Source of the DNA: an uncultured Pseudomonadales bacterium
GTDB taxonomy: Bacteria; Patescibacteriota; Microgenomatia; UBA1400; PJMF01
DNA length: 44,560 nt
Reading direction: 5' to 3'
Assembly (NCBI GenBank): GCA_964574595.1
Contig: CAZNOF010000002.1
Location: 25,413 to 69,972 of the forward strand
This document shows positions 18,871-44,346 of this stretch, piece after piece. Made by a program: the position numbers and the translations under genes. Within the stretch, counting starts at the first letter, position 1. Each line of letters opens with the position of its first letter. The notes beneath the pieces were generated by a model. It was not told the DNA's origin, did not search any database, and saw only the letters and a list, made by a program, of their open reading frames with translations.

Positions 18871-18885
18871 GGTTTGTTATTCCTT

Positions 18886-22159: not shown

Positions 22160-22171
22160 AGAGTTTTGGTT

Positions 22172-24516: not shown

Positions 24517-24525
24517 ATTATATCA
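24517..24525 (-). promoter_or_regulatory. Extended -10 promoter for the substrate-sortase operon
   Basis: TGaTATAAT on the minus strand, 31 nt upstream of ATG 24485. Confidence 0.55.
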
Positions 24526-24620
24526 AGAAAGTAGCTCTATTTCAATACCTTTTGATATAGTTAAATATAGTTAGAAAAATGGCATCGAGCCTATAAAAAG
24601 GTGACTAAAATGAGGGTACG

Positions 24621-25913
24621 TTATTGAAACAAATGACTGAACCAAGCATTCGCTTGATACCAAAAGTCTGGGTTCTCAGGTGTCAAAGAAATATGAGCAT
24701 TCTCGATCAGTTCTGAAACAGTAAATGTGGAGTTTTTGTATCCAGGGGCAGTTACCGTGATTGACTCATCTGTGTTGAGATAGGGAACTTGGAAGTTTCG
24801 ACCGACCGCGAGCACGTTATCTCGATCCGAGCGAAAGGTAACCTGATCAACTGTGTTTCCGGCAGTATTAGTAATGGTGCCAACTACAACTTTGGGAGTA
24901 TAGAATTTTTGAATCACCGCTACGGCTGGTTTGGCATCACCATGATCGTTCCAAATGGCGGTTGAACCACCCATATCCGTCCAGTAATTCAGTCCGACTA
25001 AGTGAGGATTCGCTGATAACAACTTGAGGACGTCTTTCACCCATTGAGCTTGTTCGTCGTCCGTCATGGTTCCGTGAATGTCAGGAATGGGAGCGCCAAA
25101 CTCGCCTAATACAACCTGCCCGCCACTACGGGAGGCAACTTCAGTGACATCGTCATTCAGTTGAGTTGGATCTTTTACATAGTGATCGATGACAACCAAG
25201 CCACCTAAAGCAGTCGTTGTCGGTTTGTCCATGACTAAGTCAGCTACATCTTTATTCATGGAATTGAAGTTGACTTGGATACGCTTATCTTGCGCTTTAA
25301 ATTCATCTGTGAGCATTTGATACTCGCGAATAAGGAATTCTCGGTGGCCTTGCACATCACCAGTCTTCCGAGGATCTCCTGGCCCTCCATTTTCACATTC
25401 CGGACAGGCAGAAAAAATATCTCCGTCTTCAAATAAATGCGGGTTCTTCTCTACAAATACTTTAGTCTTCTGGAAGTGTTCATCACGGGAAATAGTTGGA
25501 TAGCTAAACCAACCTTCCCAGCCGGACCAATTTCCTCTGAACCAGACGCGGAGATGGTACTTTCGAGCGGCAGTGACCCAAGTAGTGAGAACTGGCAAAA
25601 ATTCCTCATCATAGGGAGTGCCTATCGCAATATACGTCGCGCCAGTTTCAGAGATGGCTTTTGCTTGCTGATCAGAGATTGTTTGAAGTGTTTTAATGTC
25701 TGACAGATACTGTCTACTTGGATCTCTTGAAAACTTCATGGTATCAATGGACTGAAAGTTCCACCAGGAAGCTGTCTGTTGTGCAAATGACCGCTGGGTA
25801 GCCGATTTTTTCACACTAGTTCCTAGAATAAGCACGGCCATGACCGTGATCAGTAAAATCCCTAGATAGAATGATTGATGTAGTCTCACTAATAAATATT
25901 GTAGCAAATTCAC
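24621..25913 (-). CDS. Membrane-anchored glycoside hydrolase-like (clan GH-A type TIM barrel) protein
   Basis: N-terminal TM helix; candidate acid/base ECENG and nucleophile LGEFG; C-terminal carboxypeptidase-regulatory-like domain; last gene of the glycan operon. Confidence 0.65.
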   Translation of the reverse strand: MNLLQYLLVRLHQSFYLGILLITVMAVLILGTSVKKSATQRSFAQQTASWWNFQSIDTMKFSRDPSRQYLSDIKTLQTISDQQAKAISETGATYIAIGTPYDEEFLPVLTTWVTAARKYHLRVWFRGNWSGWEGWFSYPTISRDEHFQKTKVFVEKNPHLFEDGDIFSACPECENGGPGDPRKTGDVQGHREFLIREYQMLTDEFKAQDKRIQVNFNSMNKDVADLVMDKPTTTALGGLVVIDHYVKDPTQLNDDVTEVASRSGGQVVLGEFGAPIPDIHGTMTDDEQAQWVKDVLKLLSANPHLVGLNYWTDMGGSTAIWNDHGDAKPAVAVIQKFYTPKVVVGTITNTAGNTVDQVTFRSDRDNVLAVGRNFQVPYLNTDESITVTAPGYKNSTFTVSELIENAHISLTPENPDFWYQANAWFSHLFQ

Positions 25914-25915
25914 GT

Positions 25916-27544
25916 CTACTTCTGCTTTCCCAAGATTGGTTGCGTATTGAGGGTAGGAAGATATTCCGGTTTGAGTTCGTAAATATCAGCAAATGGATAG
26001 GATCTCACTAATGAATACTTATACAGTTGTTCTGACTTATTGACTAATTTAAATGTTTGGTCATTTGGGTCATTCGTTCTCATGACAATCCAGCGTGCCC
26101 AACGGTCAGGTTGAGTGGTGCCATTGAGCCAGTAAGTGCCGGTACCTTCGTGAATGAACTTCTTCATTGGTAACCCAGAAGAGAAAATAATTGCATCGTG
26201 AGAAGCGGCAGAAATCAACACAAAGCCCGGTGTGTTCCCAGCATGTTCTTGCAACCAGCCACTCACTTCCGTCACGTTCTTCTGACTTGATCCCACGCGA
26301 CCATCATCAACTGTCACGGCGTCAAAATTGACTATAGAAAAAAAGGTGACAAAGAGTAACAGACTAATAATCAGCCAACGTGATGCTTTCAGTTTGTCTA
26401 TTAAGACTCCGACAAAAATGGCAATGGAGGGAACCATCATGACACCATAGCGAACGTTAAACCACGTATTTCCATTCAAGCCCTGAATAAAGAGCACAGA
26501 GAAGCCAAAGTACAGAGCGATGATATTAAAAATCAAAGGTGCTAGGAGTGCAAGAGAAGCGAGTCGAATTGTCGATGATACTTTTTTGTTAACAAGCAGA
26601 ATGCAGGCACCCACAAAACTAAGTAAAACAGTGAACGTACCACTGTTATAAATCATGGCATACCAATAGGTGCTGATGGACTGACCCCAGTTCTTCTGTG
26701 TTATTAACACACCTGCATCGGCTAATTGCAGTTGTTGTGCATGGGCAGAGTAAGGACCAAAAGCAAAGTAGAGTGGGTCTTTAAAGATTGCTGCATTCCA
26801 AACTACCCACAAAAATATTCCCAGTCCAGCTAAACTACAAAACAAAATGAAAATACCCTCAGCCTTTTTAAGACCACCATTTCTAAATCCATGATATGAA
26901 ACAAGGATTGCTGACATCAAAAATAAGAACCAACCATCATAACGGATGAGCGTGGACAGCATAATCCAGAATGCGACTTTGACTAAATTCAGAATTGAAT
27001 CAGTTTCGTGATAATTGAGAAGTTCGTATACGGCAATAGTCATCGTGAAGATGAGCAAAAGCTCGGTCATGGCTGTTGATTGAAGGTACAAAATATTTAA
27101 ATTTGTGACAAAGATGGCTACACCAGCTAATCGGCCAATCATGCCCACTTTGAGTTTCTCTAAAATCCGATAAATTAAATATCCAGTAGCTACAAATGAG
27201 ATCATTGACTGAATTGCTCCTGATAAACCAGAGTGCCACATGAAGTCATTCCAAATTGTTAAGACCATCAATATATGAGGCAAAGGCAACCAGACAGAAC
27301 CTAACTGTGCCATACCAGGTTTGAGACCTTCAACTACCCGACGACCAATGTCTAGGTGAGATCGGGCATCGTTGTATGCTAGACCAAGTCCATTTCTATA
27401 GAAAATAATGTAACAAGCTACTGAAATAATTGATAAAAAGATCAACAAAAGCGGCACGGCGTGTTTTGTTAGGAAGCCTTGTAATAAAGTCCAAGGATTT
27501 TTAGGAATAGAAAATGAAGTGGTAGGGTTTAAGAGGCTAAACAT
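25916..27544 (-). CDS. GT-C (PMT/ArnT/GT39-like) polytopic glycosyltransferase
   Basis: First external loop YNDARSHLDIGRR...LGSVWLPLPH, AMTE and LIRYDGW motifs; about 11 TM helices; soluble C-terminal domain. Confidence 0.8.
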   Translation of the reverse strand: MFSLLNPTTSFSIPKNPWTLLQGFLTKHAVPLLLIFLSIISVACYIIFYRNGLGLAYNDARSHLDIGRRVVEGLKPGMAQLGSVWLPLPHILMVLTIWNDFMWHSGLSGAIQSMISFVATGYLIYRILEKLKVGMIGRLAGVAIFVTNLNILYLQSTAMTELLLIFTMTIAVYELLNYHETDSILNLVKVAFWIMLSTLIRYDGWFLFLMSAILVSYHGFRNGGLKKAEGIFILFCSLAGLGIFLWVVWNAAIFKDPLYFAFGPYSAHAQQLQLADAGVLITQKNWGQSISTYWYAMIYNSGTFTVLLSFVGACILLVNKKVSSTIRLASLALLAPLIFNIIALYFGFSVLFIQGLNGNTWFNVRYGVMMVPSIAIFVGVLIDKLKASRWLIISLLLFVTFFSIVNFDAVTVDDGRVGSSQKNVTEVSGWLQEHAGNTPGFVLISAASHDAIIFSSGLPMKKFIHEGTGTYWLNGTTQPDRWARWIVMRTNDPNDQTFKLVNKSEQLYKYSLVRSYPFADIYELKPEYLPTLNTQPILGKQK

Positions 27545-27545
27545 A

Positions 27546-30500
27546 TTAGTCGCGATTCCTATTTATAAACAGCGCCATAAATTGGGTGAGCAGAACGAAG
27601 CCAATTACTCCAATGATTACTTCTGTGAATTCCCAGGCAGTCAAATATTGATGTGCGTACTCTTGAAAAATAAATGATTTAGATTTATTAGCATTCAGCA
27701 TCTGCATATTTCTAGTAAAGGTGTATCGTTCCTGGACATGACTCATTGCTTCAATTGCTAATACCTCAACTTTTGGTGGGTTTCTATTTGAAGTAACGGC
27801 TCCGATAGTGTTAACACTCACGGCATACATACCGATTACGAGTATCGTAAATAAAATCAAAATATTTTTTCTCCAATGACTAATGACTTGTCCGAGTAAG
27901 ATGGCAAGGATGGAGTATGCCGGAATCATGTATCGTGAACCGAATGCCCAGCCTCCATATGGATCTCCCCACATAGAATAGAGGAGAATATCAGCCCCAA
28001 TCACTCCTGCCAATAAATTGGTGTAGCCAATATTTCTTTTAGATAATAGCAGAAGACCAATAAACCCAATTAAAATAATTGGTGTGTAGGTAATCATTCC
28101 GCGGTCTAAGCTCAGAAAATGTTCATAAAGTCCATTTGGTAACTGTCTTGTATCAAAGAAACCTAAAGCATTTCTACTTTCTGTTTTTGCTTCAGTCTTC
28201 TCGTTGTCAGGAATTTGTTGGTTCCCAATATCGACTATGTCTGGAGTATGGAGCTCGCTGACATTTTTTGCACTTGATGCAGTTCCAGCTAACTGGAACG
28301 GATTGCCATATGACATTTGATTGAAGTACATGAAGAAAGCGATTGGTAATACCATCACGGCCATTGTGACGAGTCCTGCCCAATGAATATTGATTTGATA
28401 TTTTTTGATTTTATCTTCAACATTGACCACTCTGCCTAATGCAAACAGACCAATTGGGAACATCAAGAATAAATTGGGGTTATCTACTGAAATAGAAATA
28501 GCACAGCAGAACCAGACAATGGCTAGTGCCCAAGGACTTTTGTGTCTTAGCAACGTATAGATTGAGAAAAGAATCAAGAATGTTGAAATGTGATGCTGAT
28601 ATAAAGTTACTGCATATGGAAATGCGGGTGTGGCAAATAAAAAGAACATGGCGGCGATGGTGGCTGCACTAGGTCTAGCACCAAGTCTAATTGCAATGGC
28701 ACGAATCAGCACGGCATTAAATACGGCAAACAATGAGATGACTGCAAACGAACCAACCTGAGAGTAACCTAGTGTTTTGCCAAGAATGTACCCGGGCATC
28801 ACAATATATGAGACCGTTGGAGCAAATAGCGAAACAAAGTAGCCATTCGCTGTGGCAACGTCTGGTAAAGCAAATTTCGCAATTGGAAGTGAGAAGTGGA
28901 ATGAATGATCTTCCGCTAATGAGTAGGTGAGCGCAAATCGGCCACGTTCAGGAGAAAGTTCAAGTGGGCCATTATCCATCCAGCGATCTGAATTTAATTC
29001 TGAGCTGGTTGGGTTGCCTTTGAGTCCACGAAGGGCCGCAACTAAAATGAGCATGCAAATCAGTGCAAACCAAAGGGTGCCCGTTTTTTTAAAGAATGAG
29101 ATTGGCAATAAAAATACTTTCAGTGCCGCATTTATTTTTTCAGAAACGTTCTTTTTGAGTCGAATAATTGACATGAAGACTGACCATAAGCGTAAACCAG
29201 TAGGTGTTAAGAGTGTTTTTAAGAAGCCAGGACTCATATTATTTTCAATCGAAATTCGATGGAAAAGATACTTGTCGTCTGCTTTAGAAAATGGTCTGTC
29301 ATCAACCGTGAAGGCTGCTTCGAACTCTGCATTTTTGACAGCCGCCATAGTAATGTCCGAATAGTATCCTTTGGGATACGCAAAGTATCTTGTTTGGATC
29401 TTTGTTCTTTTTTCAAAATCTTTTTTTCCTCTCCCAATTTCGGCCGAAAGTCCGATTGGTGACAGAGATGACAGATCAGCATGAGTTGCAGTGTGAAATC
29501 CAATTTCCCAGTCTTCTTTTGCTAAAACGCGTAACTCCTTATCGTCTAGCAGTGGTAACTGATTATTCATTTCATCACGTTGAGCTTTTTCAGGATTGCC
29601 AACCATAAAAATAGTTGCGTTTTTTCGTAGTTTCTTTAACAGTGGAAAGGCGAACTCTATAACGCTCTGGTATCCATCATCAAATGTAATAGCCACTCCT
29701 GAGCCAGATTTTACTACCTGACTTAACTTACTTATTTTGAAGGTTTTATTGAGAAATGAGATCTGTTCTGAAAACTCATCAGCATCTGTAGAGAATTGCC
29801 AGTTATTCAACCCAATATTGTGATAGCAAAGGATAATTGCTTTCTCGGTTGGCTTATACAAAAATGGCAGAAGCTTGTAGATTGTTTCAAGTAAAGTAAA
29901 AGCGATAGTGTATATCTTCACAAATACTGATTTGGTTGGAACAAAATCAAAAAGTGATGTCTTTGCTGATTCTGACATGTGACTATTCTTTGCATCCAAG
30001 GCTAGTGATTTTAGTGTGCCGTAAATTGAGAGTGCTTTCCATCGTCTTTTCTCTTCGGAAGATTTTAAGAAAAGTGAGCAAAAATCTACTGCTCTATTGA
30101 TCCCTAATTGCTTTTGGTAAAGTCTTGGGATTTGTGCCAGATCATAAAGGGGATCAGAAAAAACGGCGTTTTCCCAATCTGCCAACAGCAAAGTCTTTCC
30201 ACCCACTAAGATATTGTCAGAATCAAGATCACCATGAATGAGTGCTGGTTGAATTCTCTTAAAGAGAGTTGGTGTGTACAGTCGCACGAAGACGATTGTG
30301 GACCTTAGAGTTTGTAACAAGAGGCTGGGGTTTCTAACACCAGCTTGTAGTCCGTATAAAATGCCTCTGAGAAGCAATGAAAAGGTACTTTGAGTTGCAA
30401 TCTGCTTTGCCTCCTCAGTCTTGTGGAGCTTCATTTGAATATTTGTGAGGAATCCGAAGATGTCTACCAGAGATTTGATTACAACATCTGGTTCAGAGAA

Positions 30501-30815
30501 TGTTAATTTATCGCCAGCAACGAGTTCTGTACTAAAAGTTGTTGAGTTTTTCTCAACATGTTCAGATACGAGCTGAGGAGACTGGACGGAAAAGGCTCTC
30601 CCTTTCCATGGACTCAATTTCCCAACAGCTGATAACGCATGTAACTCATTGAGCAAGAAGTAATTTTCAATATCTGGTAACAAAAAAGTATGTCGTTTAG
30701 TAAACACTTTTTTTGTGGCACTCTTTTGTAATTTTCCTAATTCTACTCGCGATTTTTTATCAACTCTGAGGATTCGATTAATGATGCTGGTAAGGTGGAG
30801 GATATTAGAAAACAT
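27546..30815 (-). CDS. 1089-aa fusion: APH/choline-kinase-like + CE4 polysaccharide deacetylase + GT-C membrane domain
   Basis: Kinase HGDLDSDNIL...LADWE...DPLYDL; CE4 CYHN, ITFDDGY, FHTATH, FAYPKG; then about 520 aa of polytopic GT-C-like sequence (ELSPERGRF, WGDPYGGWAFGSRYMIP). Confidence 0.85.
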   Translation of the reverse strand: MFSNILHLTSIINRILRVDKKSRVELGKLQKSATKKVFTKRHTFLLPDIENYFLLNELHALSAVGKLSPWKGRAFSVQSPQLVSEHVEKNSTTFSTELVAGDKLTFSEPDVVIKSLVDIFGFLTNIQMKLHKTEEAKQIATQSTFSLLLRGILYGLQAGVRNPSLLLQTLRSTIVFVRLYTPTLFKRIQPALIHGDLDSDNILVGGKTLLLADWENAVFSDPLYDLAQIPRLYQKQLGINRAVDFCSLFLKSSEEKRRWKALSIYGTLKSLALDAKNSHMSESAKTSLFDFVPTKSVFVKIYTIAFTLLETIYKLLPFLYKPTEKAIILCYHNIGLNNWQFSTDADEFSEQISFLNKTFKISKLSQVVKSGSGVAITFDDGYQSVIEFAFPLLKKLRKNATIFMVGNPEKAQRDEMNNQLPLLDDKELRVLAKEDWEIGFHTATHADLSSLSPIGLSAEIGRGKKDFEKRTKIQTRYFAYPKGYYSDITMAAVKNAEFEAAFTVDDRPFSKADDKYLFHRISIENNMSPGFLKTLLTPTGLRLWSVFMSIIRLKKNVSEKINAALKVFLLPISFFKKTGTLWFALICMLILVAALRGLKGNPTSSELNSDRWMDNGPLELSPERGRFALTYSLAEDHSFHFSLPIAKFALPDVATANGYFVSLFAPTVSYIVMPGYILGKTLGYSQVGSFAVISLFAVFNAVLIRAIAIRLGARPSAATIAAMFFLFATPAFPYAVTLYQHHISTFLILFSIYTLLRHKSPWALAIVWFCCAISISVDNPNLFLMFPIGLFALGRVVNVEDKIKKYQINIHWAGLVTMAVMVLPIAFFMYFNQMSYGNPFQLAGTASSAKNVSELHTPDIVDIGNQQIPDNEKTEAKTESRNALGFFDTRQLPNGLYEHFLSLDRGMITYTPIILIGFIGLLLLSKRNIGYTNLLAGVIGADILLYSMWGDPYGGWAFGSRYMIPAYSILAILLGQVISHWRKNILILFTILVIGMYAVSVNTIGAVTSNRNPPKVEVLAIEAMSHVQERYTFTRNMQMLNANKSKSFIFQEYAHQYLTAWEFTEVIIGVIGFVLLTQFMALFINRNRD

Positions 30816-30816
30816 A

Positions 30817-31725
30817 TTAGTGAGTGGATTCGGCAGTGAACCATTTCATCTTATAGTGAGTAATGATATATGAACTAAAAGGTAAGGATAAGAGGTTAAT
30901 CAAGGTAATTGTGATGACTCCCAAAGGGTTTTTAATAAAAGATTTGCCGCACTCAAGGAGATATCTTTTTTTATCTCTCGCAGCTTCATGATCAATAATT
31001 TCTGGGAAATAGGGTCTCAGTTCTGTGGTAAACGCAGCTGGTTGAGATCTTAATATCTGCTTCATATAGTCTTTGAAGTTGAGTGGCAATTTATAAAGAA
31101 TGTGCGCTTTTTTTGCCCACATGAATTTGTAGCCTAGTTGTTTACAGAGTAAGTACAAGTAAGTGTCTTCGTTGATGATCTGAGGGAACTTAATCTGCTC
31201 CAGAAAACTTCTTCGTAAAGCAAATGTTTGTCCACAGCAGTAAAGATTGTCACCATTGTTCATACTTCTTCGCATGGCATCAAATACTTCAAAAGAGGAA
31301 TACACAGCTTTCTGAACGAAAGTAACTGGCGTTTCAGGTTTGACGTTTCCGGCCACATACATCACATTAAGATCTGCAAACTGTTTGATGAGCTCATCAA
31401 TTGTTACGACATTTCCAAGCCGAACGTCTGCATCTACCATGACCAAAAAGTCACCTTTAATTTCTTTAAACATTTGCTGTAGGCGAGCTGTCTTACCCAA
31501 TCGTTTCTTACCATCAATCACCTTAATAAGAGCTGATCGAACTGAGTTTGCTTCAGAGACCGTGTTATCTGTGCAACCATCGCAATAAACGAGTATCTCT
31601 GTAACCTCCCAGTGTTTAGATTTTTTTTGCGCAAGAATATCATTAAGAATATTTTTAATCCCGCGCTCTTCATTAAAAGCTGGTATTCCGATGCTGATGA
31701 GTTTTTTCTGTTCAATTTTAGACAT
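30817..31725 (-). CDS. GT2 glycosyltransferase (type B, copy 2)
   Basis: IGIPAFNEE, CDGCTD, DAD and NED motifs; ends KWFTAESTH. Start moved to ATG 31725, overlapping the upstream stop. Confidence 0.9.
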   Translation of the reverse strand: MSKIEQKKLISIGIPAFNEERGIKNILNDILAQKKSKHWEVTEILVYCDGCTDNTVSEANSVRSALIKVIDGKKRLGKTARLQQMFKEIKGDFLVMVDADVRLGNVVTIDELIKQFADLNVMYVAGNVKPETPVTFVQKAVYSSFEVFDAMRRSMNNGDNLYCCGQTFALRRSFLEQIKFPQIINEDTYLYLLCKQLGYKFMWAKKAHILYKLPLNFKDYMKQILRSQPAAFTTELRPYFPEIIDHEAARDKKRYLLECGKSFIKNPLGVITITLINLLSLPFSSYIITHYKMKWFTAESTH

Positions 31726-32635: not shown

Positions 32636-32642
32636 GATAGTC

Positions 32643-34346: not shown

Positions 34347-34347
34347 A

Positions 34348-36158: not shown

Positions 36159-36167
36159 AGGGTATCT

Positions 36168-37265
36168 TTATGCCTTCTTAAAAAATGCCTTTATTTGCTC
36201 TGAGACTTGATCAACATCTTCATCTGTCATGTACTGATGAAGCGGAATTGAAAGAATCCGTTGAGTGGCATTTTCCGTTTTGGGGAAAGAAAGGTTGTTA
36301 TATTCGGCGTAAACCTGTTGTTTGTGAATTGGAACAGGATAGTGAATTAATGTTTGAATTTGTTTCTCTTTTAAGTACTCTGCTAGCTCGTCTCTTTTGT
36401 CAGTGGCAATTACAAATAAGTGAAATGCATGTTGTTCCCAATCACGTACTTTTGGTAAATCGATTTCAGTGCAGTCAGCCAAGTTCTTTACATATCTTTG
36501 CGCAATTGCTTGTCTACGAGCTACTGCTTCAGTCAGTTTTGAAAGTTTGACTAACAGGATGGCAGCTTGGATTTCATCCAGCCTACTGTTGTAGCCCACT
36601 GTTTCGTGATAGTACTTCACTTTTTGACCGTAATTTCTTAGCATTAGAAACTTTTCGTTGAGTTCTGCGGAGTTAGTGACGAGTGCTCCAGCATCTCCAA
36701 ATGCACCGAGGTTTTTAGTTGGATAGAAACTAAAGCAGCCAATGTCCCCAAATGTTCCCGCAAACTTGCCATTTTTCTTGGCACCATGAGCTTGACAGGC
36801 ATCTTCAATCACAAAGAGATCGTGTTTCTTTGCAATCTGGCAGATGTTTTCAATGTCACATAATTGTCCGTATAGATGAACAGGAATGATAGCTTTAGTC
36901 TTTTCAGTAATGGCTTGCTCAATCTTATTTGCATCTAAGTGGTAAAAGTCATCTATGTCAACGAAAACGGGTTTAGCACCTAATAGAGAAATTGGGAGTG
37001 ATGTAGCAATAAATGAATGAGTACAAGTGATGACTTCATCACCAGGACCAACACCGATTGCCATCAATGCTATTAAAAGTGCTTCCATGCCGTTTGCAAC
37101 ACCACAAGTGAACTGAACATCATTGGCTTCACTGAAAGCTGTTTCAAAGGCCTTGAGTTTGCCACCTAAAATATACCAACCACTTCGTAGTGTTTCTAAA
37201 ACAGCTTTTTCAATTTCTACTTGAAAAAGAGAGTAGTCTTTATGTGTGTCGAAAATTTCGATCAT
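36168..37265 (-). CDS. fdtB: DegT/DnrJ/EryC1/StrS PLP-dependent sugar aminotransferase (FdtB/QdtB-like)
   Basis: VANGMEAL, IEDACQAHG, SFYPTKNLGAFGDAG and GYNSRLDEIQAAIL motifs; adjacent to an FdtA-like gene. Confidence 0.9.
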   Translation of the reverse strand: MIEIFDTHKDYSLFQVEIEKAVLETLRSGWYILGGKLKAFETAFSEANDVQFTCGVANGMEALLIALMAIGVGPGDEVITCTHSFIATSLPISLLGAKPVFVDIDDFYHLDANKIEQAITEKTKAIIPVHLYGQLCDIENICQIAKKHDLFVIEDACQAHGAKKNGKFAGTFGDIGCFSFYPTKNLGAFGDAGALVTNSAELNEKFLMLRNYGQKVKYYHETVGYNSRLDEIQAAILLVKLSKLTEAVARRQAIAQRYVKNLADCTEIDLPKVRDWEQHAFHLFVIATDKRDELAEYLKEKQIQTLIHYPVPIHKQQVYAEYNNLSFPKTENATQRILSIPLHQYMTDEDVDQVSEQIKAFFKKA

Positions 37266-37771
37266 ATTGTTTTCTCCTTAAAGTACAAAATATCTTGAGT
37301 GTCACGTCCAATAAAGTGTGCTACTGCCTGAACTGCTCTAGCAAGAAATGTTTGGCGATTTTTACGTTTATTTACAATAGACTTGAATGTGGCATAGTCA
37401 CGAATGTAGTCACTTTCGTTGTAGTGCTTTGAAGCAACAACAAAAAGAACTGTATCTTTTTTAAACTCATGCATTTCTCTCCAGATCATGTTCCCCAGGT
37501 AGAGCCCTTTACTGGGTTTATCCAAGATAATTGTCTTTCTCTCTTCACCAGTATCTAGTACGATCTTCAACTTTCCATGAATACAAAAAAGGACTTGCTC
37601 AAGCTGTTGATGAGCATGCTTTCCACGGACATTTCCTTCATCTGCGTTGTAAATCATATAGAAACGATTAATTGGAAAGGGGATATGTTTTTTTGTTTCT
37701 GCAAAACTCAAGCTAGCTTCGTCGACTATGGTAGGAATAGTTATGATTTTATAAAGTGGTTTTTTTGCCAT
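37262..37771 (-). CDS. fdtA: FdtA/QdtA-family cupin (dTDP-4-keto-6-deoxyhexose 3,4-ketoisomerase)
   Basis: IPFPINRFYMIY, VRGKHAH, GLYLGNMIWREM and YNESDYIRDY motifs. Confidence 0.9.
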   Translation of the reverse strand: MAKKPLYKIITIPTIVDEASLSFAETKKHIPFPINRFYMIYNADEGNVRGKHAHQQLEQVLFCIHGKLKIVLDTGEERKTIILDKPSKGLYLGNMIWREMHEFKKDTVLFVVASKHYNESDYIRDYATFKSIVNKRKNRQTFLARAVQAVAHFIGRDTQDILYFKEKTI

Positions 37772-37775
37772 AAAA

Positions 37776-38906
37776 TTATCTCAAGCCTTTTCTAGGTGTT
37801 TTCTTGTCTAAGATTTCATAGAAAAACGCTTCAAACTGGTCAGCGGTATTATCCCAACTGAACTGCTTGGCAAAACTTCGACACTTGTCATACATTTTGG
37901 ACAAGTTTGGATTTTCCATTGCAGATAAAAGTGTTTTGGCGTAGTCGTCAGTATCAAATGGCTTTGCTTTAAATCCGTATTCATTGGTAATGAACTTCAA
38001 CTCAGGAATATCAAAGCAGGCAATCGGTAAGCCAGCGGCCAATGCCTCTAAACCAAAGATTGGTAAGTCATCGTATCGTGATGAGAATGCCACAAATGCA
38101 GCCTTTGAGAGTACGTCGAGTTTTTTCTCGCCAAAGGTTGAACCAATCATTTTCACTTTGTCTTCTAATTTGTAGTCATGAATAAGTTGTTCGACCTTTT
38201 GTTGATCAGCACCATGACCGGCAATAACTAAAGGATACTTTGCCTTTTTAGCAATTTTGGCATATGCCTCTAACAACAGGTCGATACCTTTTTGATCAAC
38301 ATCTAATCTACCTAAGAAGAGAATGTATTCAGCCTTTTTCCGTTTAATTTCAAAGTACTCTTTATCAGCACCTTGAAGGACGATTCTGGCCTCAATATGA
38401 GGATTTCTTTTTTGCATTCTGGTCAGAATGTCTTTAGTGTATGGCAAGAAATATCGATAGTAGGGCAGTAAGGCATACTCAATCCAGTGAAATGGTAATT
38501 TGTACTTTCTGGAGAACTCGGCAGCTGCAAATTGCGAGGGGAGCCCCACCACAGGTGCTTTTGCATACAACGGACTGCCCATCGTTGAGATTGGGGCGGT
38601 GAAACACTCAATAATGATATCTGTCATTAATTTAGGAACTGCAAAAGGTAAGGCGAAGAAGTAGGCAAAGTTGTTAAGTCTGATGAATTTTGATCCTAGG
38701 CCAATGTGTTTGTAGTAAATTCCGTTTTCGACTCGATCTTTATATCCAGGGTATTTTGAACACAAAGACGTCACAGTATGACCCTTCTCAACCAATCTCT
38801 TTCCAACGGCGACCGTGGCAAGTGATTGACCGCCGGCCAACAACGGATTCTTGACGTCGTCAAAGTCTAAATAGGTAATTCGTAACTTTTGTTTATTTTT
38901 ATTCAT
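37776..38906 (-). CDS. GT4 glycosyltransferase
   Basis: AGGQ N-terminal motif, FLGRLDVDQKG, and DDLPIFGLEALAAG (E-x7-E variant). Start is ATG 38906, overlapping the upstream stop by 8 nt. Confidence 0.9.
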   Translation of the reverse strand: MNKNKQKLRITYLDFDDVKNPLLAGGQSLATVAVGKRLVEKGHTVTSLCSKYPGYKDRVENGIYYKHIGLGSKFIRLNNFAYFFALPFAVPKLMTDIIIECFTAPISTMGSPLYAKAPVVGLPSQFAAAEFSRKYKLPFHWIEYALLPYYRYFLPYTKDILTRMQKRNPHIEARIVLQGADKEYFEIKRKKAEYILFLGRLDVDQKGIDLLLEAYAKIAKKAKYPLVIAGHGADQQKVEQLIHDYKLEDKVKMIGSTFGEKKLDVLSKAAFVAFSSRYDDLPIFGLEALAAGLPIACFDIPELKFITNEYGFKAKPFDTDDYAKTLLSAMENPNLSKMYDKCRSFAKQFSWDNTADQFEAFFYEILDKKTPRKGLR

Positions 38907-41900
38907 ACACTTCCACAACACCTGCCTGTGCAGTTGCTTCACTTGTTATATTCATTGATGACTCTAATACTGCCAAAAACTTTTGTGCGTTCTTATTCCA
39001 CTGAAAACCTTGTGCCCATTTATATGCAGCTGACGAAAGTTTTGTTCGCTTTTTACCATCTTGGATCAAATCAATAATTGCATCAGCCAGCTGATCTGGT
39101 TTTTTTGGAGCAACAAGTACGCCAGTTACTCCATCCTGAATAGAGTCTTTTAGTCCTTTTACATTTGAGGCGATGACTGGAGTCTTTGCGGCATTTGCTT
39201 CAATGACAGTAATACCCCAACCTTCAATCATTGATGGCTGAACAGCAATCCAACTCTCAGCAAATAATTCGGCTTTTTCTTTGTTGGTGATATTGCTTCT
39301 AAATTCGATATTTTGGCTCAAGTGTAGCTTTTCGGTGAGTTGAATGAGTCCAGTTCTGGCCTCACCTGATCCGCCAATAGTGAGTTTTGCATTAGGGTAT
39401 TGTTGTACTACTTTACTGAATGACTGAATCAGTACGTCTACATTCTTATATGCTTTGAGTCTACCCACATATACCAGAGAAGGATGAGTTGTCTTCTTTT
39501 TTGTGACAAATGCTGATGAACTTACTCCTGGATTCACAATATCAATAGAACTCGTATCTCCCAAACCGATTTTAATTATTTCTGCTTTAGAAGATTCAGA
39601 AACAGTAATGATTTTTTGTGACTTGTAGAAAACCGGCATGACCGTTCCTTCAATAAAGTTAGCTACGGCAGCTAATGGGAAGGATAAGTGTTCTCGAAAA
39701 ACTTCCTGATGAATATGGTGAATTAAGAGAAATTTTGGTTTTCGAGCGTAGAGTGGCGTTAAGAATGGAATGCCGTTTTCGCAGTCAATAATCACATCAA
39801 AGTGATTTCGGAGCTTAAGTGTGTAGTAAATGAATGCCCAGAAATACACTGTGTAAAAGCCACCTCTGCGAATAACTTGCACACCATTCACCTTTTCGTT
39901 TCTTGGACTCTTACCATCATTTCCACAGAAAATCGTGACAGAATGACCGGTCATTACTAAGTGTTCAGCAATTTCTTGAATATAGCTTTCAGCGCCGCCA
40001 GCCCAAACATGTTTCGTATCTCGCCAGTTAAAAAAGAGAACGCTGTAGTTGTCTCGGAGTAAATCTGACTTCTTGCGTTGAGGTAATTTGGCAAATAAAT
40101 CTAAAGCGTCAGTAAAATTAGTTAATGGGGTTTTGATTTTGTCATAAAACCAATCAAGAAGTGCAAGCACTACTAAGTTAGCTAGACCAGTCAAAAACAT
40201 AATATAAATAATGTCTTGCAAATTGCGATGGAAGAATGCAAAACCTGCCACTTGGAAAATTGCCAGTACAAAAGCTACAAATGGGAAAAGATAATTGCGT
40301 TTTGCTAAATGATAGTTTGCATAGACCTGAGAAATATTAAATAAGGCGATTCCAAGACAGTAGAGAGGCAAATAGCTGGCAATGGCAATCAATTTTTGAC
40401 TATAAAGAGCAGCTCCAAACCTTGGCAGAATCAGTCCCAAACAAATAAATCCGGCAAAACTCACAAAGGCTGTGGACCAAATTAAAATGACAAATGGACG
40501 ATCCGTTTTCTTACCGCTGCCTTCATGATGAGAAATGATGGGCGTAATAAAGGTCAAAATTAAATTTCCTGCAAAGTAAATAATTTTCCCGATCAGTCCT
40601 AAGAATGCATACTTTCCTGCTTCTTCTGCACCTAAGTAGTGAGCTACGAGAAGATTGTCTAGACTAAAGAAAGCGATGGTTGATAGCCCTGCTAACAGTG
40701 CCAGCCAGAAAAACTTAGGTGGCAAGTTAAAGTTCTTAACATCTGCTATGGTGTCTTTTTCTTTTCTAGCATAGTAGTAAGCAACTAAAAAGCTGACTAC
40801 GGTTGAGATTGGGATTGCTAAGTAAAGCATCCGACCCCATTGCAAGTGAGCAATGACCACAGTACTTATGATCCTAACTAAAGGCTCAACAATTGCCACA
40901 AGCGCCACCGCGCCAAACATCATTCGACCTTTGATATATCCACGGTCCACGTTCGTTAAGACAGTAATCAAAAGAAGTGGAGCAAATACCAAAATTGGTA
41001 CGATAGTCGGAGTTCCAAAAAGGGTTTGCAAAAGTGGAGACAAGGCTATCCAAAGACAAACTGCCACAAGACTAATAATGAGCGAACTTCTTCGAATTGA
41101 TCTCCAAAATTCATAGATCGAATTACTCTTGTATTTACCTGTTAAGTACGCAGTTTGATGATTAATTGTTGTAGCGAGAGCACTCGTTGGAATCATTAAA
41201 AGGTACAGGATACTCGTAAAGGTATTGACCACCCCAAAATCGGCAAATGGTAAGACGTGACCAGTATAAATATTGGTTAACAGGTTCAGCACGTTTGCTG
41301 AGATATTTGCAATAATGAGGAAGAAAGCTGCTCTATATGCTGGTTGCTTGCATTTTTCAATGAAATCACACAGAGCTTGTTTGTTCAGCTTCTTTCTAAG
41401 TAGGGTAAATCGGTTGACTCTTTGTGAAGTAATAGTTAGAACAGGCTCTGCTTTTTTCTCGATCATCAACTCAGTTTCTACTTCAGCATTAACCACTGTA
41501 TCAGCAACTGCATTTTCCGCTGCTTCTTCAAGCTGCTTTTTGACATGCAGACCATGAACAGTTTTTTCCCAGTAGTGTGGTTTTACGATAAGTTGGTAAA
41601 GGGCAATCGTGGCCGCGACACTGACGAGTAACCAGTAAACTGGAATTAAAAATACCCATTTGATGATTGTCCAGTGATCTCGTTTGGCCGCACCAATCAT
41701 GTAGTAGTAGATAAAGAAAAAGTTTCCAAAAACAAGGGATGTCACAGCCATGTAAAAGACTGAGGCCGGGTAGAAGGATTCAATTGTAGGTCCAACAAGA
41801 GCGTAAAGCGCAAAATAAGATGCTGTTAATAACCACATAAATGGGTTAATTAACATGAAGGCAATTTTCCCACCCATGACCAATTGGAATAAGAGTGCGT

Positions 41901-43683
41901 GCAACCCATACTCTTTGAAAAACTTGTATGGATTTCGCATGTGGACCAAGTAGGTCTGCATGTAGCCTTTGATCCATCTTGATCTTTGACGTAGCCAGTT
42001 GCTCCAGCTACTATTTGCTTCTTCTAGAGTAATTGAGTCAATGATGGCGGTTCTTCCGCCACGTTTAAACAATCGAATTCCTAGGTCAGCATCTTCAGTG
42101 ACGTTGAAAGAGTCCCAACCTTCCAGATCTTTAAGATCTGAGGTACGGAAGTGGTTACTGGTACCGCCTAGGGGTAAGGATGTTTCAATACTTTGCAAGC
42201 CGGTCAGTACAACGTCAAACCAAAGAGAGTACTCAGCAGTAAAAAAGCGGGTTAATAAGTTCTGGTGAGGGTTATAGAAATTTAACTTGGCCTGAATACA
42301 CTTAACTGCTTCCGGAGATTTTAGGAAAGCTAAATAGACTTTCTTCAATTGAAGTGGATCTGGTACATCTTCAGCATCGTAAATAACCAAAAACTCGCCT
42401 TTGGCAAAATGAAGGCCATAGTTACATGCTTTCGGTTTGGTCTTCGGTTGAGAGTCTGGAACTACTTGTACTGTCACGAAAGGAGGTAACTTCATTTGGG
42501 AAGCAGCTTTAATGGTTACTAAGTCGTCTGCTTCTAATAATAAGATGACGTCAAGTTTCTTTTTTGGCCAGTCCATTTTTTCAATAGCTGACACAAACTG
42601 TGGCAACACGTGCGCTTCTTTATAAAGAGGGCATAGCACCGTATATATAGGTAAGTCTTTTTCTGATAAAGAAGAAATTTCTTTAGGTTCAATTTTCAGT
42701 TCTGGAGGTTGGTGCAAGCTTTTTAAAATGACGTAAAGATTAAAAAAGACATCTACAAAGTAGATAAAACTAAGTACTGCAACAAATAGTTTGACAGTTC
42801 CAACGAAATCTAAGAAAAGACTGCCAATAAAAAATGATCCTAAAGCAATTAGGAAAGCCCTTTGTGGTGATGTTAAAACATTGACAGCTGAGTCATCAGA
42901 AAGCAGGGTGGTATGAGTGATAAATCGCTTGCCCTTGTGATACATTCCAGCACCAAGCATATTTTCTTGACTGTCCGGCAGGATTTGTATGTTTCGTTTA
43001 TGCTTCAATTTATAGGCAACCGCTTGACCACCAATTTCTTTTACAGAGGTTAATAAATGAATCTTAGACTCACCTTTTGATCGTTTCTCAAAAGTGATGG
43101 AAACTTCATCAATTGAGTAGCCTAAGTTCATAGCTGTCGTCAATAAAGGAATATCTAGTGTCCAGGCAGTAACTTGACTGGTTTGTAAATGAGAAATGAC
43201 CTCTTTAGAAAATACTTTCAGACCAGACTGAACATCACAATGTAACCCATGTAGAACATTGCCAAAGAACCACTGGAATCCACGACTTAAAAAATGTCGA
43301 ACTTTACTTTCTTGATAGTCGTGACGACGGGCCACCACAACGGCTCCTGCTTGGGCTTTCTCCAGCATTTCGGGAATGGCTTCTGGGGGATACTGCAGAT
43401 CGGCGTCGATCATTGCTAAGTAAGGTGCTTTAGCTGCTTTTGCTCCTTCAAGAATTGAGTAAGCTTTTCCTTTATTTCCTTTTTTTGAAAGAGCAGTAAT
43501 GGGATATCTCTTGGCTAAAGATTGCAAAATTTTTAAACTACTGTCTGTAGAATGGTCATCGACAAAGTAGAGATGGTATGAGATTTTAGCTTTGTGAAAT
43601 GTGCTATCGAGTCGACCAATTAACGCAACTAAATTTTCAGCTTCGTTATAGACTGGGATGATGACGTCAATTTGCGATGGCAT
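38899..43683 (-). CDS. 1594-aa fusion: DPM1-like GT2 + processive synthase-type GT2 + Wzx-like flippase + GT4
   Basis: aa 1-225: IIPVYNEA, DDHSTD, DADLQYPP. aa ~270-710: PLYKEA, KPKACN, YDAED (42367-42378), GGTSNHF, TED (42091-42099), QRSRW (41974-41988), with flanking TM helices. aa ~785-1180: about 12 TM helices with FADFGVVNTFTSI and GAEEAGKYA. aa ~1210-1580: FNWRD..AGGAE, VGRLKAYKN, EGWGITVIEA. Confidence 0.9.
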   Translation of the reverse strand: MPSQIDVIIPVYNEAENLVALIGRLDSTFHKAKISYHLYFVDDHSTDSSLKILQSLAKRYPITALSKKGNKGKAYSILEGAKAAKAPYLAMIDADLQYPPEAIPEMLEKAQAGAVVVARRHDYQESKVRHFLSRGFQWFFGNVLHGLHCDVQSGLKVFSKEVISHLQTSQVTAWTLDIPLLTTAMNLGYSIDEVSITFEKRSKGESKIHLLTSVKEIGGQAVAYKLKHKRNIQILPDSQENMLGAGMYHKGKRFITHTTLLSDDSAVNVLTSPQRAFLIALGSFFIGSLFLDFVGTVKLFVAVLSFIYFVDVFFNLYVILKSLHQPPELKIEPKEISSLSEKDLPIYTVLCPLYKEAHVLPQFVSAIEKMDWPKKKLDVILLLEADDLVTIKAASQMKLPPFVTVQVVPDSQPKTKPKACNYGLHFAKGEFLVIYDAEDVPDPLQLKKVYLAFLKSPEAVKCIQAKLNFYNPHQNLLTRFFTAEYSLWFDVVLTGLQSIETSLPLGGTSNHFRTSDLKDLEGWDSFNVTEDADLGIRLFKRGGRTAIIDSITLEEANSSWSNWLRQRSRWIKGYMQTYLVHMRNPYKFFKEYGLHALLFQLVMGGKIAFMLINPFMWLLTASYFALYALVGPTIESFYPASVFYMAVTSLVFGNFFFIYYYMIGAAKRDHWTIIKWVFLIPVYWLLVSVAATIALYQLIVKPHYWEKTVHGLHVKKQLEEAAENAVADTVVNAEVETELMIEKKAEPVLTITSQRVNRFTLLRKKLNKQALCDFIEKCKQPAYRAAFFLIIANISANVLNLLTNIYTGHVLPFADFGVVNTFTSILYLLMIPTSALATTINHQTAYLTGKYKSNSIYEFWRSIRRSSLIISLVAVCLWIALSPLLQTLFGTPTIVPILVFAPLLLITVLTNVDRGYIKGRMMFGAVALVAIVEPLVRIISTVVIAHLQWGRMLYLAIPISTVVSFLVAYYYARKEKDTIADVKNFNLPPKFFWLALLAGLSTIAFFSLDNLLVAHYLGAEEAGKYAFLGLIGKIIYFAGNLILTFITPIISHHEGSGKKTDRPFVILIWSTAFVSFAGFICLGLILPRFGAALYSQKLIAIASYLPLYCLGIALFNISQVYANYHLAKRNYLFPFVAFVLAIFQVAGFAFFHRNLQDIIYIMFLTGLANLVVLALLDWFYDKIKTPLTNFTDALDLFAKLPQRKKSDLLRDNYSVLFFNWRDTKHVWAGGAESYIQEIAEHLVMTGHSVTIFCGNDGKSPRNEKVNGVQVIRRGGFYTVYFWAFIYYTLKLRNHFDVIIDCENGIPFLTPLYARKPKFLLIHHIHQEVFREHLSFPLAAVANFIEGTVMPVFYKSQKIITVSESSKAEIIKIGLGDTSSIDIVNPGVSSSAFVTKKKTTHPSLVYVGRLKAYKNVDVLIQSFSKVVQQYPNAKLTIGGSGEARTGLIQLTEKLHLSQNIEFRSNITNKEKAELFAESWIAVQPSMIEGWGITVIEANAAKTPVIASNVKGLKDSIQDGVTGVLVAPKKPDQLADAIIDLIQDGKKRTKLSSAAYKWAQGFQWNKNAQKFLAVLESSMNITSEATAQAGVVEVYE

Positions 43684-43896: not shown

Positions 43897-44346
43897 TTAG
43901 CGCAAATGTGCTAATAGTTCTTCAACTGCTCGTTCACTACTTTTCCAGTGACTGACCTCTTTGCCGCGTTCATTAATTTGCACAAGCTCATCTTGAGCGA
44001 CAACATTGTATTTTGCTTTAAGTTCTTTATTCGTGTCAATATTCACTCGGAATATCACAACATCTGCTGGTATTTGTTGAGCATGTTCCTGGAAGTTTTT
44101 CTCCACTAAATAGCAAGTTGAACACCAGCTTGCTTGAAAAAAGAGAACGACACGCTTGTGTTCCTGAAGCTTCTGATCAGCCAATTCTGGACTGTATGTC
44201 AGAATTGGTACATTTTCATTTGCCGTGAATGTTTTTTGATTACAGGTTTGCTCTTTGGCTAAACATGGGTTGAGTTTAGCTGCCAAAAATGTAGCTCCAA
44301 TAAGTGATAGGCAAAGTAGAAAAGTGAACTGAGTCTTGTTTCTCAT
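43897..44346 (-). CDS. Exported thioredoxin-fold protein
   Basis: LFFQASWCSTC (CxxC) after an N-terminal signal/anchor; ATG 44346 follows TGaCATAAT-N7. Confidence 0.85.
   Translation of the reverse strand: MRNKTQFTFLLCLSLIGATFLAAKLNPCLAKEQTCNQKTFTANENVPILTYSPELADQKLQEHKRVVLFFQASWCSTCYLVEKNFQEHAQQIPADVVIFRVNIDTNKELKAKYNVVAQDELVQINERGKEVSHWKSSERAVEELLAHLR

Follow-up and report, generated by a model that had tools for sequence, protein, structure and literature searches.

A twelve-gene operon for a probable envelope glycan assembly line shared by loci of Patescibacteria

The stretch of DNA analysed here (the window, 44,560 nt of contig CAZNOF010000002.1, from an uncultured member of the Patescibacteriota) carries on its minus strand, from 43683 down to 24621, twelve consecutive, co-oriented and tightly packed open reading frames (ORFs), which we call g1 to g12 from the first to the last transcribed, and we confirm that this gene set is real, a predicted operon for building a cell-surface sugar coat. 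[quoted passage not shown] An initial annotation, made from the sequence alone, had read the operon as a hybrid of synthase, flippase and GT-C glycosyltransferase logic that decorates a synthase-made backbone, or Ser/Thr-rich surface proteins, with charged amino sugars carried on a lipid; this interpretation is partly supported. The coordinates of all features are given in Table 1.

Domains were assigned with a Pfam scan of the window ORFs of at least 100 aa and transmembrane (TM) segments with a crude hydropathy scan. With the most plausible start codons, a choice backed by the gene lengths in a relative that is 87% identical (locus L001), the eleven junctions of the operon comprise four overlaps (8, 4, 7 and 8 nt) and seven gaps (4, 9, 1, 7, 1, 1 and 2 nt), in agreement with the gaps of at most 9 nt or short overlaps first reported. 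The twelve genes encode six GT2 and two GT4 glycosyltransferase domains (Pfam), two GT-C domains (AlphaFold models with Foldseek searches of the PDB), one Wzx-type flippase domain, two kinase-deacetylase units, an FdtA protein with a sugar 3-aminotransferase and, with weak support, a protein that resembles hydrolases, g12. This inventory reproduces the one originally proposed, including its negative part, since neither Pfam nor NCBIfam recognizes a Wzy, Wzz, WaaL or ABC-exporter domain in the twelve genes; a domain of an initiating phosphoglycosyltransferase was not found there either. The operon also contains a diverged tandem duplication, a feature absent from the initial annotation, where g5, g6 and g7 correspond to g8, g9 and the N-terminal half of g10 (identities in Table 1), and L001 carries the same duplication. 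Scans for promoters and terminators within the operon returned counts at the chance level (43 promoter-like sites with 47.7 expected, and 13 terminator-like sites with 15.5 expected).

To describe the conservation of the locus, the domains of the window were mapped onto the ORFs of 85 loci around relatives of g11, of which 83 were kept after the removal of two duplicates. Counts were obtained with BLASTP (E ≤ 1e-8, at least 50% query coverage), a setting that undercounts short low-complexity proteins; each locus was taken with 10 kb of flank, denominators are the loci with enough flank, and the organism labels of many of the metagenome bins are unreliable. The C-terminal half of g10, referred to as g10C, lies directly upstream of g11 in 73/73 loci, and g12 lies downstream of g11 in 58/72. 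Further downstream, a homologue of a 215-aa sortase-substrate protein is present in 41/67 loci and a sortase in 40/60. On the upstream side, the GT4 domain of a g1-like giant protein is found within 10 kb in 47 of 52 loci and at least one small GT2 in 51 of 52, whereas the intervening genes are much less constant: CE4 deacetylase domains in 27, g2-like GT4 in 20, DegT in 11, kinase in 10 and FdtA in 5 of the 52, with methyltransferases or a hexapeptide acyltransferase in single loci. The locus is a conserved platform (g1, small GT2, the GT-C pair and g12) with a variable middle, and the prediction that the giant synthase-containing protein, the two GT-Cs and g12 would bracket such a middle is borne out.

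Gene fusions add to this picture. Single ORFs join GT2, CE4 and g10C in L044 (confirmed with Pfam), GT2, GT4 and g10C in L036, GT2 and CE4 in L030, and kinase, CE4 and g10C in the window, L001, L068, L082 and L083; for P0133 and P0234, a GT2-g10C fusion is deduced from protein length and precomputed GT2 Pfam domains. These natural fusions appear to tie the parts into one pathway, and those that involve g10C suggest that this protein transfers what the cytoplasmic GT2, GT4, CE4 and kinase domains have prepared. The succession of GT2, CE4, flippase and GT-C that had been proposed from sequence is supported by the GT2-CE4-GT-C, GT2-GT4-GT-C and kinase-CE4-GT-C combinations. As a separate observation, four loci (L062, L070, L082 and L083) have a second, more divergent copy of GT2a-GT2b (the two GT2 domains of g1), g10C or g11 nearby, downstream of g11, which indicates that the platform itself can be duplicated.

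The giant protein g1 contains, according to Pfam, a GT2 domain at residues 7-134 (GT2a), a second one at 347-627 (GT2b), a Polysacc_synt domain at 785-1051 and a GT4 domain at 1229-1570, and this four-domain fusion recurs in many related loci. GT2a (residues 4-209) finds as its closest solved structures dolichol-phosphate-mannose synthase (DPMS; 5mlz, 5e-20), GtrB (5ekp, 7e-14) and ArnC (9e-14) and is followed by two TM helices (residues 276-319). Its DADLQYPPE motif is kept among 15 orthologues with single substitutions in some, and its NCBIfam matches all stay below cutoff (PgfS 4e-19, AglJ 4e-14, ArnC 76.7 bits with a cutoff of 529). GT2b (residues 333-654) matches BcsA in the PDB sequence search (2e-12), is flanked by two and three TM segments and holds the D, DxD, (T)ED and QxxRW motif set of processive enzymes; the segments E(A/E)DD, TKPKACNYG, YDAED, NVTED(A/C)DLG and QR(S/T)RW are kept in 23 orthologues at 62-75% identity. 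Flipping is the predicted function of the Polysacc_synt domain (PF01943, 31.3 bits with a cutoff of 28.2). From GT2b to GT4 the crude hydropathy scan counts an even number of passes through the membrane, so that both domains can be cytoplasmic. The GT4 domain matches structures of the MshA, PimA and TarM types, and its likeness to PimA, PimB and MshA is also seen in NCBIfam.

Neither g10C nor g11 has a Pfam match of its own (g11 none at E ≤ 10, g10C none with 39 homologues included), and comparison of g10C, g11 and g12 with all PDB chains by sequence, as single sequences and as 40-sequence profiles, returned nothing meaningful. Two g11 orthologues, P0002 and P0078, just pass Pfam PMT_2 (PF13231; 27.0 and 31.3 bits with a cutoff of 26.1), and both g10C and g11 match NCBIfam NF047440 weakly, below cutoff. 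We therefore turned to structure prediction with AlphaFold (AF2). The g11 model, built from a 40-sequence alignment, has a pLDDT of 76.0 and a pTM of 0.76, and its top 23 Foldseek matches in the PDB are all GT-C enzymes (STT3, ALG12, ALG9, PglB, ArnT, AftD, Emb and Pmt4 among them; E down to 4e-6, TM-scores of 0.44-0.53). RodA, at E = 3, is the only match of the SEDS type. The g10C model (pLDDT 87.9, pTM 0.89) likewise gives only GT-C enzymes among its top 23, with ArnT first at 1.7e-4 and TM-scores of 0.40-0.47 (ArnT 5f15 and 5ezm, EmbA, AftB, Pmt4, STT3 and ALG9). Both models thus show the GT-C fold, the lack of which the initial annotation had named among the findings that would refute its interpretation. 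An hhalign comparison of g10C with g11 gave a probability of 3%, that is, no detectable homology, indicating two separate GT-C families rather than paralogues.

The most conserved protein of the locus is g11, with more than 3240 homologues (63-87% identity among the best 120 listed) from Patescibacteria metagenome genomes labelled Saccharimonadia and Levy-, Woese-, Ames-, Davies-, Curtiss- and Gottesmanbacteria. The g10C family counts about 1100 homologues, mostly stand-alone proteins of about 520 aa devoid of Pfam domains. Among 40 homologues in each case, D59 and E72 of g11, directly after the helix at 29-50, and E64 and D97 of g10C, in the loop after the helix at 17-39, are invariant and constitute putative catalytic residues. 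Given the linkage and fusion of these proteins to GT2, CE4 and flippase domains, their donor would be a polyprenyl-phosphate-linked sugar. We rejected g11 as an STT3-type oligosaccharyltransferase, as inspection of its C-terminal domain revealed no WWDYG-like motif. Comparing by eye the identity class of g10C (about 30% or about 50% to the window) with the presence of CE4 or kinase domains, no link was evident.

In actinobacteria, PimE, MptA/B, Emb and Aft enzymes elongate and branch lipoglycans on the outside with polyprenyl-phosphate sugars, and EmbA/B/C, AftB, AftD and PimE are among the fold matches of g10C and g11. Together with the resemblance of the GT4 domains to PimA, PimB and MshA, two distinct and always adjacent GT-Cs that would suit sequential extracellular elongation, and a window in which Pfam detects no wall ligase, these matches could speak for a membrane-anchored lipoglycan akin to lipomannan, lipoarabinomannan or a glycosylated lipoteichoic acid, where the GT4s and GT2b would build a glycolipid primer inside and the GT-Cs would elongate or branch it after flipping. 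We regard this alternative as very unlikely, given that the locus has no inositol-lipid or glycerol-phosphate polymer genes, that the GT4 matches are generic and that the GT2b motifs are those of a processive synthase and not of a glycolipid synthase, even if sequence hardly distinguishes these two types.

The sugar chemistry of the variable middle in this genome can be read in part from g3 and g4. The best PDB matches of g3 are FdtA (2pa7, 2e-33) and QdtA (1e-28), while g4 matches 7b0d (2e-111), 7n63 (1e-102), QdtB (3frk, 1e-93) and DesV (8e-89) and ArnB more weakly (1e-51 to 9e-58; 246.5 bits in NCBIfam with a cutoff of 631). Considering that g4, whose gene overlaps that of g3 by 4 nt, pairs with an FdtA protein and is closest to QdtB and DesV, the product of the two enzymes should be a dTDP-3-amino-3,6-dideoxyhexose and not an Arn-type sugar. 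No RmlA, RmlB or FdtC/QdtC N-acetyltransferase was found by Pfam in the window; the amino sugar may remain a free amine, or the Rml and acetyltransferase genes may lie elsewhere in the genome. The parallel drawn earlier with the Arn (L-Ara4N) pathway consequently holds for the order of events and fails for the aminotransferase.

Also in the middle of the operon, the small GT2 g6 shows weak PDB matches to ArnC and GtrB over its N-terminal third, and g7 and the N-terminal half of g10 combine a kinase with a CE4 domain. In both proteins the kinase motifs (VxK, NE, H(R/G)DxxxxN and D(W)E) and the CE4 motifs (FDDG, HTxTH and YP(R/K)G, with the last catalytic His) are intact. These units have neither signal peptide nor TM segment, and in g10 the unit precedes the first GT-C helix in the hydropathy profile. 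Since the N-terminus of GT-C enzymes is cytoplasmic, the kinase-CE4 units should act in the cytoplasm, on a lipid-linked donor. A deacetylase acting on the outer polymer in the manner of PgaB or IcaB is rejected on the same grounds.

Two further readings of the locus are extremely unlikely, namely the Arn-type addition of a cationic amino sugar to a lipid, such as a lipid A analogue, and a classical Wzx/Wzy-dependent O-antigen or capsule locus. The gene classes shared with Arn (DegT, GT2, CE4, flippase and GT-C), ArnT as the top Foldseek match of g10C and the presence of a Wzx-type domain are what they have in their favour. Yet g4 is of the QdtB/FdtB type, no ArnA-like domain (UDP-GlcA decarboxylase/formyltransferase) was found among the scanned window ORFs, and g3 and g4 are confined to 5-11 of 52 loci. 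The Wzx-type domain is the only member of the Wzx/Wzy set, as the domain searches of the operon show, and the fold matches of the GT-Cs are ArnT, STT3, PMT, Emb and Aft, with a SEDS protein appearing solely as the RodA match at E = 3. Both readings were rejected for these reasons.

The last gene of the operon, g12, encodes a protein with one N-terminal TM segment, an unassigned domain of about 300 aa and an Ig-like CarboxypepD_reg tail, the latter present in 29 of 40 homologues (2492 homologues in total). Although searches of Pfam, NCBIfam and the PDB sequences returned no match for g12 itself, a distant homologue, P0397, passes PF11790 Glyco_hydro_cc (26.2 bits with a cutoff of 21, model positions 139-225 of 237), a few other homologues match the same family below cutoff, and to the eye the g12 motifs LGEFG, DHY and NYW look like those of clan GH-A, such that the 300-aa domain is possibly GH-A-like. 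The hydrolase label of the initial annotation is accordingly weak. A g12 profile search of cluster representatives, from which the best 150 of 962 matches were listed, uncovered at least seven representatives of 889-954 aa from other metagenomes (P0389, P0390, P0393, P0397, P0398, P0420 and P0427) in which the g12-like domain and Ig-like tail follow an N-terminal extension of about 520-560 aa. The extension of P0389 aligns with g11 along 506 aa at 35% identity (E 7e-78) and that of P0397 matches Pfam PMT_2, so the g11-g12 fusion is confirmed in the two members checked, with neither main part carrying a Pfam annotation of its own in the window. These fusions link g12 with the GT-C g11, and not with the synthase, as its putative partner outside the membrane.

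Taken together, these data are consistent with the following scheme, in which the carrier lipid, the order of steps, the acceptor, the role of g12 and all sugars other than the dTDP-3-amino-3,6-dideoxyhexose class are inferred. At the cytoplasmic face, GT2a and the membrane-tethered small GT2s would load sugars onto polyprenyl phosphate. The cytoplasmic GT4s would then tailor the lipid-linked sugar or short glycan, for which FdtA and the 3-aminotransferase would supply the dTDP-3-amino-3,6-dideoxyhexose building block, and in this genome the kinase-CE4 units would remove N-acetyl groups from it and add phosphate. Both modifications probably precede flipping, in an Arn-like logic extended by a kinase. 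The Wzx-type domain of g1 would flip the carrier-linked unit outward, and the adjacent GT-Cs g10C and g11 would transfer it to an extracytoplasmic acceptor. The likeliest acceptor would be a conserved beta-glycan backbone extruded by GT2b, which g12 may bind or trim; we favour this backbone because the synthase motifs are invariant and a domain that looks glycan-active, g12, is fused to g11. The conserved genes would then form the platform and the variable middle would set a lineage-specific side-chain chemistry, as in O-antigen and teichoic-acid loci.

Several observations weigh against this scheme. Pfam detected within the window neither an LCP wall ligase nor an initiating phosphoglycosyltransferase, which leaves the attachment of any polymer unexplained. 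Cyclic di-GMP receptors or co-polymerases (PilZ, PgaD, IcaD and PelD) were not found by Pfam in the window either, though small divergent partners could escape such a scan, and GT2b stays far under the NCBIfam PgaC_IcaA cutoff (1e-28, 100.1 bits with a cutoff of 422.3); polymer synthesis by GT2b is for both reasons only predicted. The TM-scores of the two GT-C models to solved enzymes are modest (0.43-0.53), the hydrolase nature of g12 has its weak basis in one sub-domain Pfam match of a distant homologue, and the public sequencing runs that were checked included none found to contain the region. Finally, the locus has a conserved sortase substrate with a Ser-rich linker, which points to a protein acceptor.

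This 215-aa protein, encoded after g12, comprises a signal peptide, a Cys-containing domain of about 115 aa, a Ser/Asn/Gly-rich linker, an LAATG sorting signal, a TM helix and a basic tail, and the neighbouring sortase is presumed to be its anchoring enzyme. Its orthologues keep the signal peptide, the Cys domain, a sorting motif LG[LA]A[STA]TGN, the TM helix and the basic tail. Their linkers are rich in Ser, Thr, Gly and Asn in most cases and acidic or basic in a few; the linker in the window reaches 50% Ser/Thr over 30 aa, whereas those of L023, L044 and L036 are acidic/basic with only 7-12% Ser/Thr. With this pair the conserved unit runs past the left boundary first assigned to the operon, down to 23252. 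The best promoter-like site of the region falls in the 135-nt gap after g12, which suggests that the two genes may be a separate yet linked transcription unit.

The protein acceptor has to be taken as a serious rival, though we judge it unlikely. According to it, the flipped lipid-linked sugars would be transferred by the GT-Cs to disordered, Ser/Thr-rich linkers of secreted and wall-anchored proteins, the 215-aa protein first, and GT2b would make no free polymer. The synteny of sortase substrate and sortase with the GT-C pair, the composition of most linkers, the PMT_2 matches of g11 orthologues and dolichol-P-mannose synthase as the best solved match of GT2a, together with its PgfS match below cutoff, all agree with protein O-glycosylation, for which the GtrB-PgtC2 and Pgf systems of streptococci offer precedents (PMC12041528, PMC5856776). 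Other surface proteins of the window also contain stretches of 53-60% Ser/Thr. It sits less well with the three Ser/Thr-poor linkers and with the good promoter-like site that parts the pair from the operon, and it leaves both the invariant synthase motifs of GT2b and the fusion of g12 to g11 unexplained. In a bolder combination, which we hold to be quite unlikely, the 215-aa protein would be a dedicated acceptor, or "proteoglycan anchor", on whose low-complexity linker the glycan would be built or attached by the GT-C pair together with g12. The sortase would link the glycoprotein covalently to peptidoglycan, so that a protein and a sortase, instead of an LCP-type phosphodiester ligase, would tether the major wall glycopolymer of these Patescibacteria, with the kinase-CE4 units making the attached sugars zwitterionic. 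The scheme with a GT2b-made backbone remains the one we prefer.

Table 1. Features of the operon and of the adjoining sortase region, in window coordinates.
Feature	Coordinates	Strand	Basis or remark
g1, 1594-aa GT2a-GT2b-Wzx-type flippase-GT4 protein	38899..43683	-	Pfam, PDB sequence search, 16 TM segments
g1 GT2a, residues ~4-240	42964..43674	-	polyprenyl-phosphate sugar synthase type (DPM1/GtrB/ArnC-like)
g1 GT2b, residues ~333-700	41584..42687	-	membrane-embedded synthase-type GT2
g1 Polysacc_synt, MOP/Wzx-type, residues ~785-1180	40144..41331	-	PF01943; eleven hydrophobic segments
g1 GT4, residues 1229-1575	38959..39999	-	Pfam Glycos_transf_1 4e-44 and Glyco_transf_4
g2, GT4 glycosyltransferase	37776..38906	-	Pfam Glycos_transf_1 2e-26
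g3, FdtA/QdtA-type dTDP-6-deoxy-hexulose 3,4-ketoisomerase	37262..37771	-	Pfam FdtA 2e-45
g4, DegT-family sugar 3-aminotransferase, QdtB/FdtB type	36168..37265	-	Pfam DegT 2e-123
g5, small GT2 type A, C-terminal hydrophobic helix	35250..36158	-	Pfam; TM residues 264-282
g6, small GT2 type B, C-terminal hydrophobic helix	34348..35256	-	Pfam
g7, 567-aa cytoplasmic kinase (APH/protein-kinase-like)-CE4 deacetylase	32643..34346	-	Pfam APH and Polysacc_deac_1
g8, small GT2 type A, g5 paralogue	31718..32635	-	Pfam; 51% identity to g5
g9, small GT2 type B, g6 paralogue	30817..31725	-	Pfam; 53% identity to g6
g10 N-terminal half, residues 1-560, kinase-CE4, g7 paralogue	29136..30815	-	Pfam; 43% identity over 561 aa
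g10C, residues ~561-1089, GT-C fold, family without Pfam model	27546..29135	-	AlphaFold and Foldseek
g11, GT-C fold with C-terminal alpha/beta domain	25916..27544	-	AlphaFold and Foldseek
g12, membrane-anchored extracytoplasmic protein	24621..25913	-	start codon uncertain: GTG (25913) or, like P0241, ATG (25841)
Promoter-like site TTGAAA-17-TATAAT, TG ahead	24517..24545	-	consensus match only, 11/12
215-aa secreted sortase-substrate protein	23838..24485	-	sequence features; outside the span first annotated
Sortase	23252..23815	-	Pfam Sortase 1e-12

Further genes were noted in the surroundings of the operon. Upstream of g1, at a distance of 213 nt, a minus-strand gene (43897-44382) encodes a membrane-anchored thioredoxin-fold protein with a CxxC motif and one N-terminal hydrophobic segment. 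Its possible clients are the secreted proteins of the locus that contain Cys, and it is similar to the MdbA-like thiol-disulfide oxidoreductases, a family reported as enriched in the candidate phyla radiation (CPR) (PMC6744442). Just past the sortase, on the opposite strand, a tRNA-Ser(cga) gene (22071-22159) precedes a gene (22166-23248) for an Acyl_transf_3 membrane O-acyltransferase (7e-30), and a similar gene lies near the locus in L005. Members of the acyltransferase-3 family are glycan-modifying membrane enzymes. Also on the plus strand, the gene at 19848-22040 encodes a secreted protein of 730 aa in which NCBIfam recognizes a DNRLRE domain (36.4 bits with a cutoff of 34); L001 has a 731-aa gene at the same position followed by a NUDIX gene, the window counterpart of which lies at 19282-19731.

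On the left side of the window, five co-oriented plus-strand genes for secreted proteins (2290-8366) are arranged in a way reminiscent of the WxL surface-protein operons of Firmicutes. They include two paralogous Ser/Thr-rich proteins (2290-4020 and 5234-6313) with a similar C-terminal motif, ...TDY(S/T)D..T(I/V)..A..F, which alternate with a protein that has a WxL-interacting peptidoglycan-binding domain (4076-5194) and with two proteins that have C-terminal TM anchors. Their Ser/Thr-rich stretches (53-57% over 30 aa) are further candidate targets of glycosylation. An 816-aa surface protein at 9059-11509 (plus strand) combines CarboxypepD_reg domains, the type found in the g12 tail, with a stretch of 60% Ser/Thr/Pro SSPTPTPVVSAAPTVSPSPSSITTTSSTST. 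The segment from about 15000 to 19000 has a G+C content of 0.47-0.485 compared with 0.38-0.40 in the glycan operon and holds tRNA-Ser(tga) (15160-15247), tRNA-Arg(gcg) (16068-16140) and large ORFs free of Pfam domains (16223-18193 and 18196-18870), so that an island or another genomic stratum is conceivable here. Two ORFs antisense to the operon, one of 145 aa within g10 (28927-29364, plus strand) and one of 121 aa within g4 (36185-36550, plus strand), have low-complexity translations and are most likely spurious.

Patescibacteria, or CPR, are tiny and mostly uncultured bacteria that account for a large share of bacterial diversity and live mostly attached to other cells, with a surface chemistry that is essentially unknown. 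Few large and conserved gene sets directed at their envelope lend themselves to a mechanistic reading, and the present locus is among them. Its conserved core and variable middle look like those of serotype-determining loci, which makes it a candidate for what determines host attachment, phage recognition and the diversity of strains. Should the genetically tractable Saccharibacteria carry it, it also offers knock-out targets there, and it provides targets for glycomics of enrichments.

The closest known counterparts are the multi-component systems of Gram-positive bacteria, such as CsbB/GtcA/YfhO, GtlA/GtlB, CsdA-F/CflA, GtsABC and the GacI/GacJ/GacK/GacL system of the group A carbohydrate, in which a GT-A enzyme loads polyprenyl phosphate, a Wzx- or GtrA-type flippase (GacK, of the Wzx type, in the group A carbohydrate) moves the sugar across the membrane and a GT-C, with a PMT_2 domain or no Pfam domain, transfers it outside (PMC8035078). 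The combination proposed as a hybrid is indeed present and, with this precedent for GT-A, flippase and GT-C working together, less exotic than first thought (PMC8035078). As in these systems, and in Gac especially, GT2, a Wzx-type flippase and GT-C are clustered, the linkage between GT-A and GT-C being kept in 47-51 of 52 loci. The Patescibacteria loci differ in that GT-A, synthase-type GT2, flippase and GT4 are fused in the giant protein, two unrelated GT-C families are always adjacent, cytoplasmic CE4, kinase, GT2 and GT4 domains are often fused to the GT-C, and a glycoside hydrolase-like protein and a sortase-substrate pair are syntenic. Unlike the accessory Gram-positive decoration systems, moreover, the locus is conserved across related Patescibacteria loci.

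With Arn, the locus shares the order in which a GT2, a CE4 deacylase whose substrate is the lipid-linked sugar on the inner face, a flippase and a GT-C follow one another, and ArnT and ArnC are the best structural match of g10C and one of the GT2a matches, respectively. In contrast, it has an FdtA-paired 3-aminotransferase in place of ArnB, no ArnA in the window and an added kinase domain, and it misses all NCBIfam Arn equivalog cutoffs widely; its flippase is of the MOP/Wzx type, whereas that of Arn is of the ArnE/F type. Lipid A is not expected in this organism. Synthase-dependent systems (BcsA/BcsZ, PgaC/PgaB, IcaA/IcaB and NodC/NodB) resemble it in the motifs and TM segments of GT2b, whose best family matches are PgaC/IcaA and BcsA, and in having CE4 and a possible glycoside hydrolase-like protein in one locus. 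Here, however, no PilZ, PgaD, PelD or other cyclic di-GMP module was found in the window, the cytoplasmic CE4 is fused to a kinase or a GT-C, g12 is linked through the fusions of its homologues to a GT-C and not to the synthase, and GT2b sits inside a four-domain protein. The dTDP-Fuc3N(Ac)/Qui3N(Ac) pathway (FdtA/QdtA, FdtB/QdtB and FdtC/QdtC), which serves S-layer glycans and O-antigens, is matched by g3 and g4 through their likeness to FdtA (2pa7) and QdtB (3frk), and differs in the N-acetyltransferase, RmlA and RmlB that the window scan did not find.

N-glycosylation by the Agl proteins of Haloferax volcanii (AglJ, AglD, AglR, AglB and AglS) begins with a DPM1-like GT2 and involves a polyprenyl-monophosphate glycan, a Wzx-like flippase and two outer GT-Cs. 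The likeness is one of logic only; the AglJ match of GT2a is below cutoff, and neither GT-C shows by inspection a WWDYG-type STT3 motif. Ppm1-Pmt performs protein O-glycosylation in actinobacteria, as GtrB-PgtC2 and Pgf (PgfS, PgfM1 and PgfM2) do in streptococci (PMC12041528, PMC5856776). All three share with the present locus a lipid-sugar synthase and a GT-C, and their acceptors are Ser/Thr-rich linkers and LPXTG-type proteins, just as a candidate acceptor and a sortase are syntenic here. The present locus nevertheless carries a synthase-type domain and many more glycosyltransferases than such systems need, and in Patescibacteria the linker is not Ser/Thr-rich in all orthologues and the glycoprotein is a candidate.

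The literature searched, whose coverage is incomplete, yielded no paper that describes this cluster from Patescibacteria or Saccharibacteria. The "EPS" genes of Southlakia (SEML1_0079-0086) were considered as the same locus and rejected, since they form a classical Wzx/Wzy cluster with LCP (PMC10633639). Overall, the logic of the system is known from the bacteria above, and what is new is a pair of GT-C families for which Pfam offers no curated model, a recurrent GT2-GT2-Wzx-GT4 protein and a kinase-CE4-GT-C fusion, to which the fusions of GT-C with g12, the conserved sortase-substrate neighbour and conservation across the Patescibacteria loci examined can be added.

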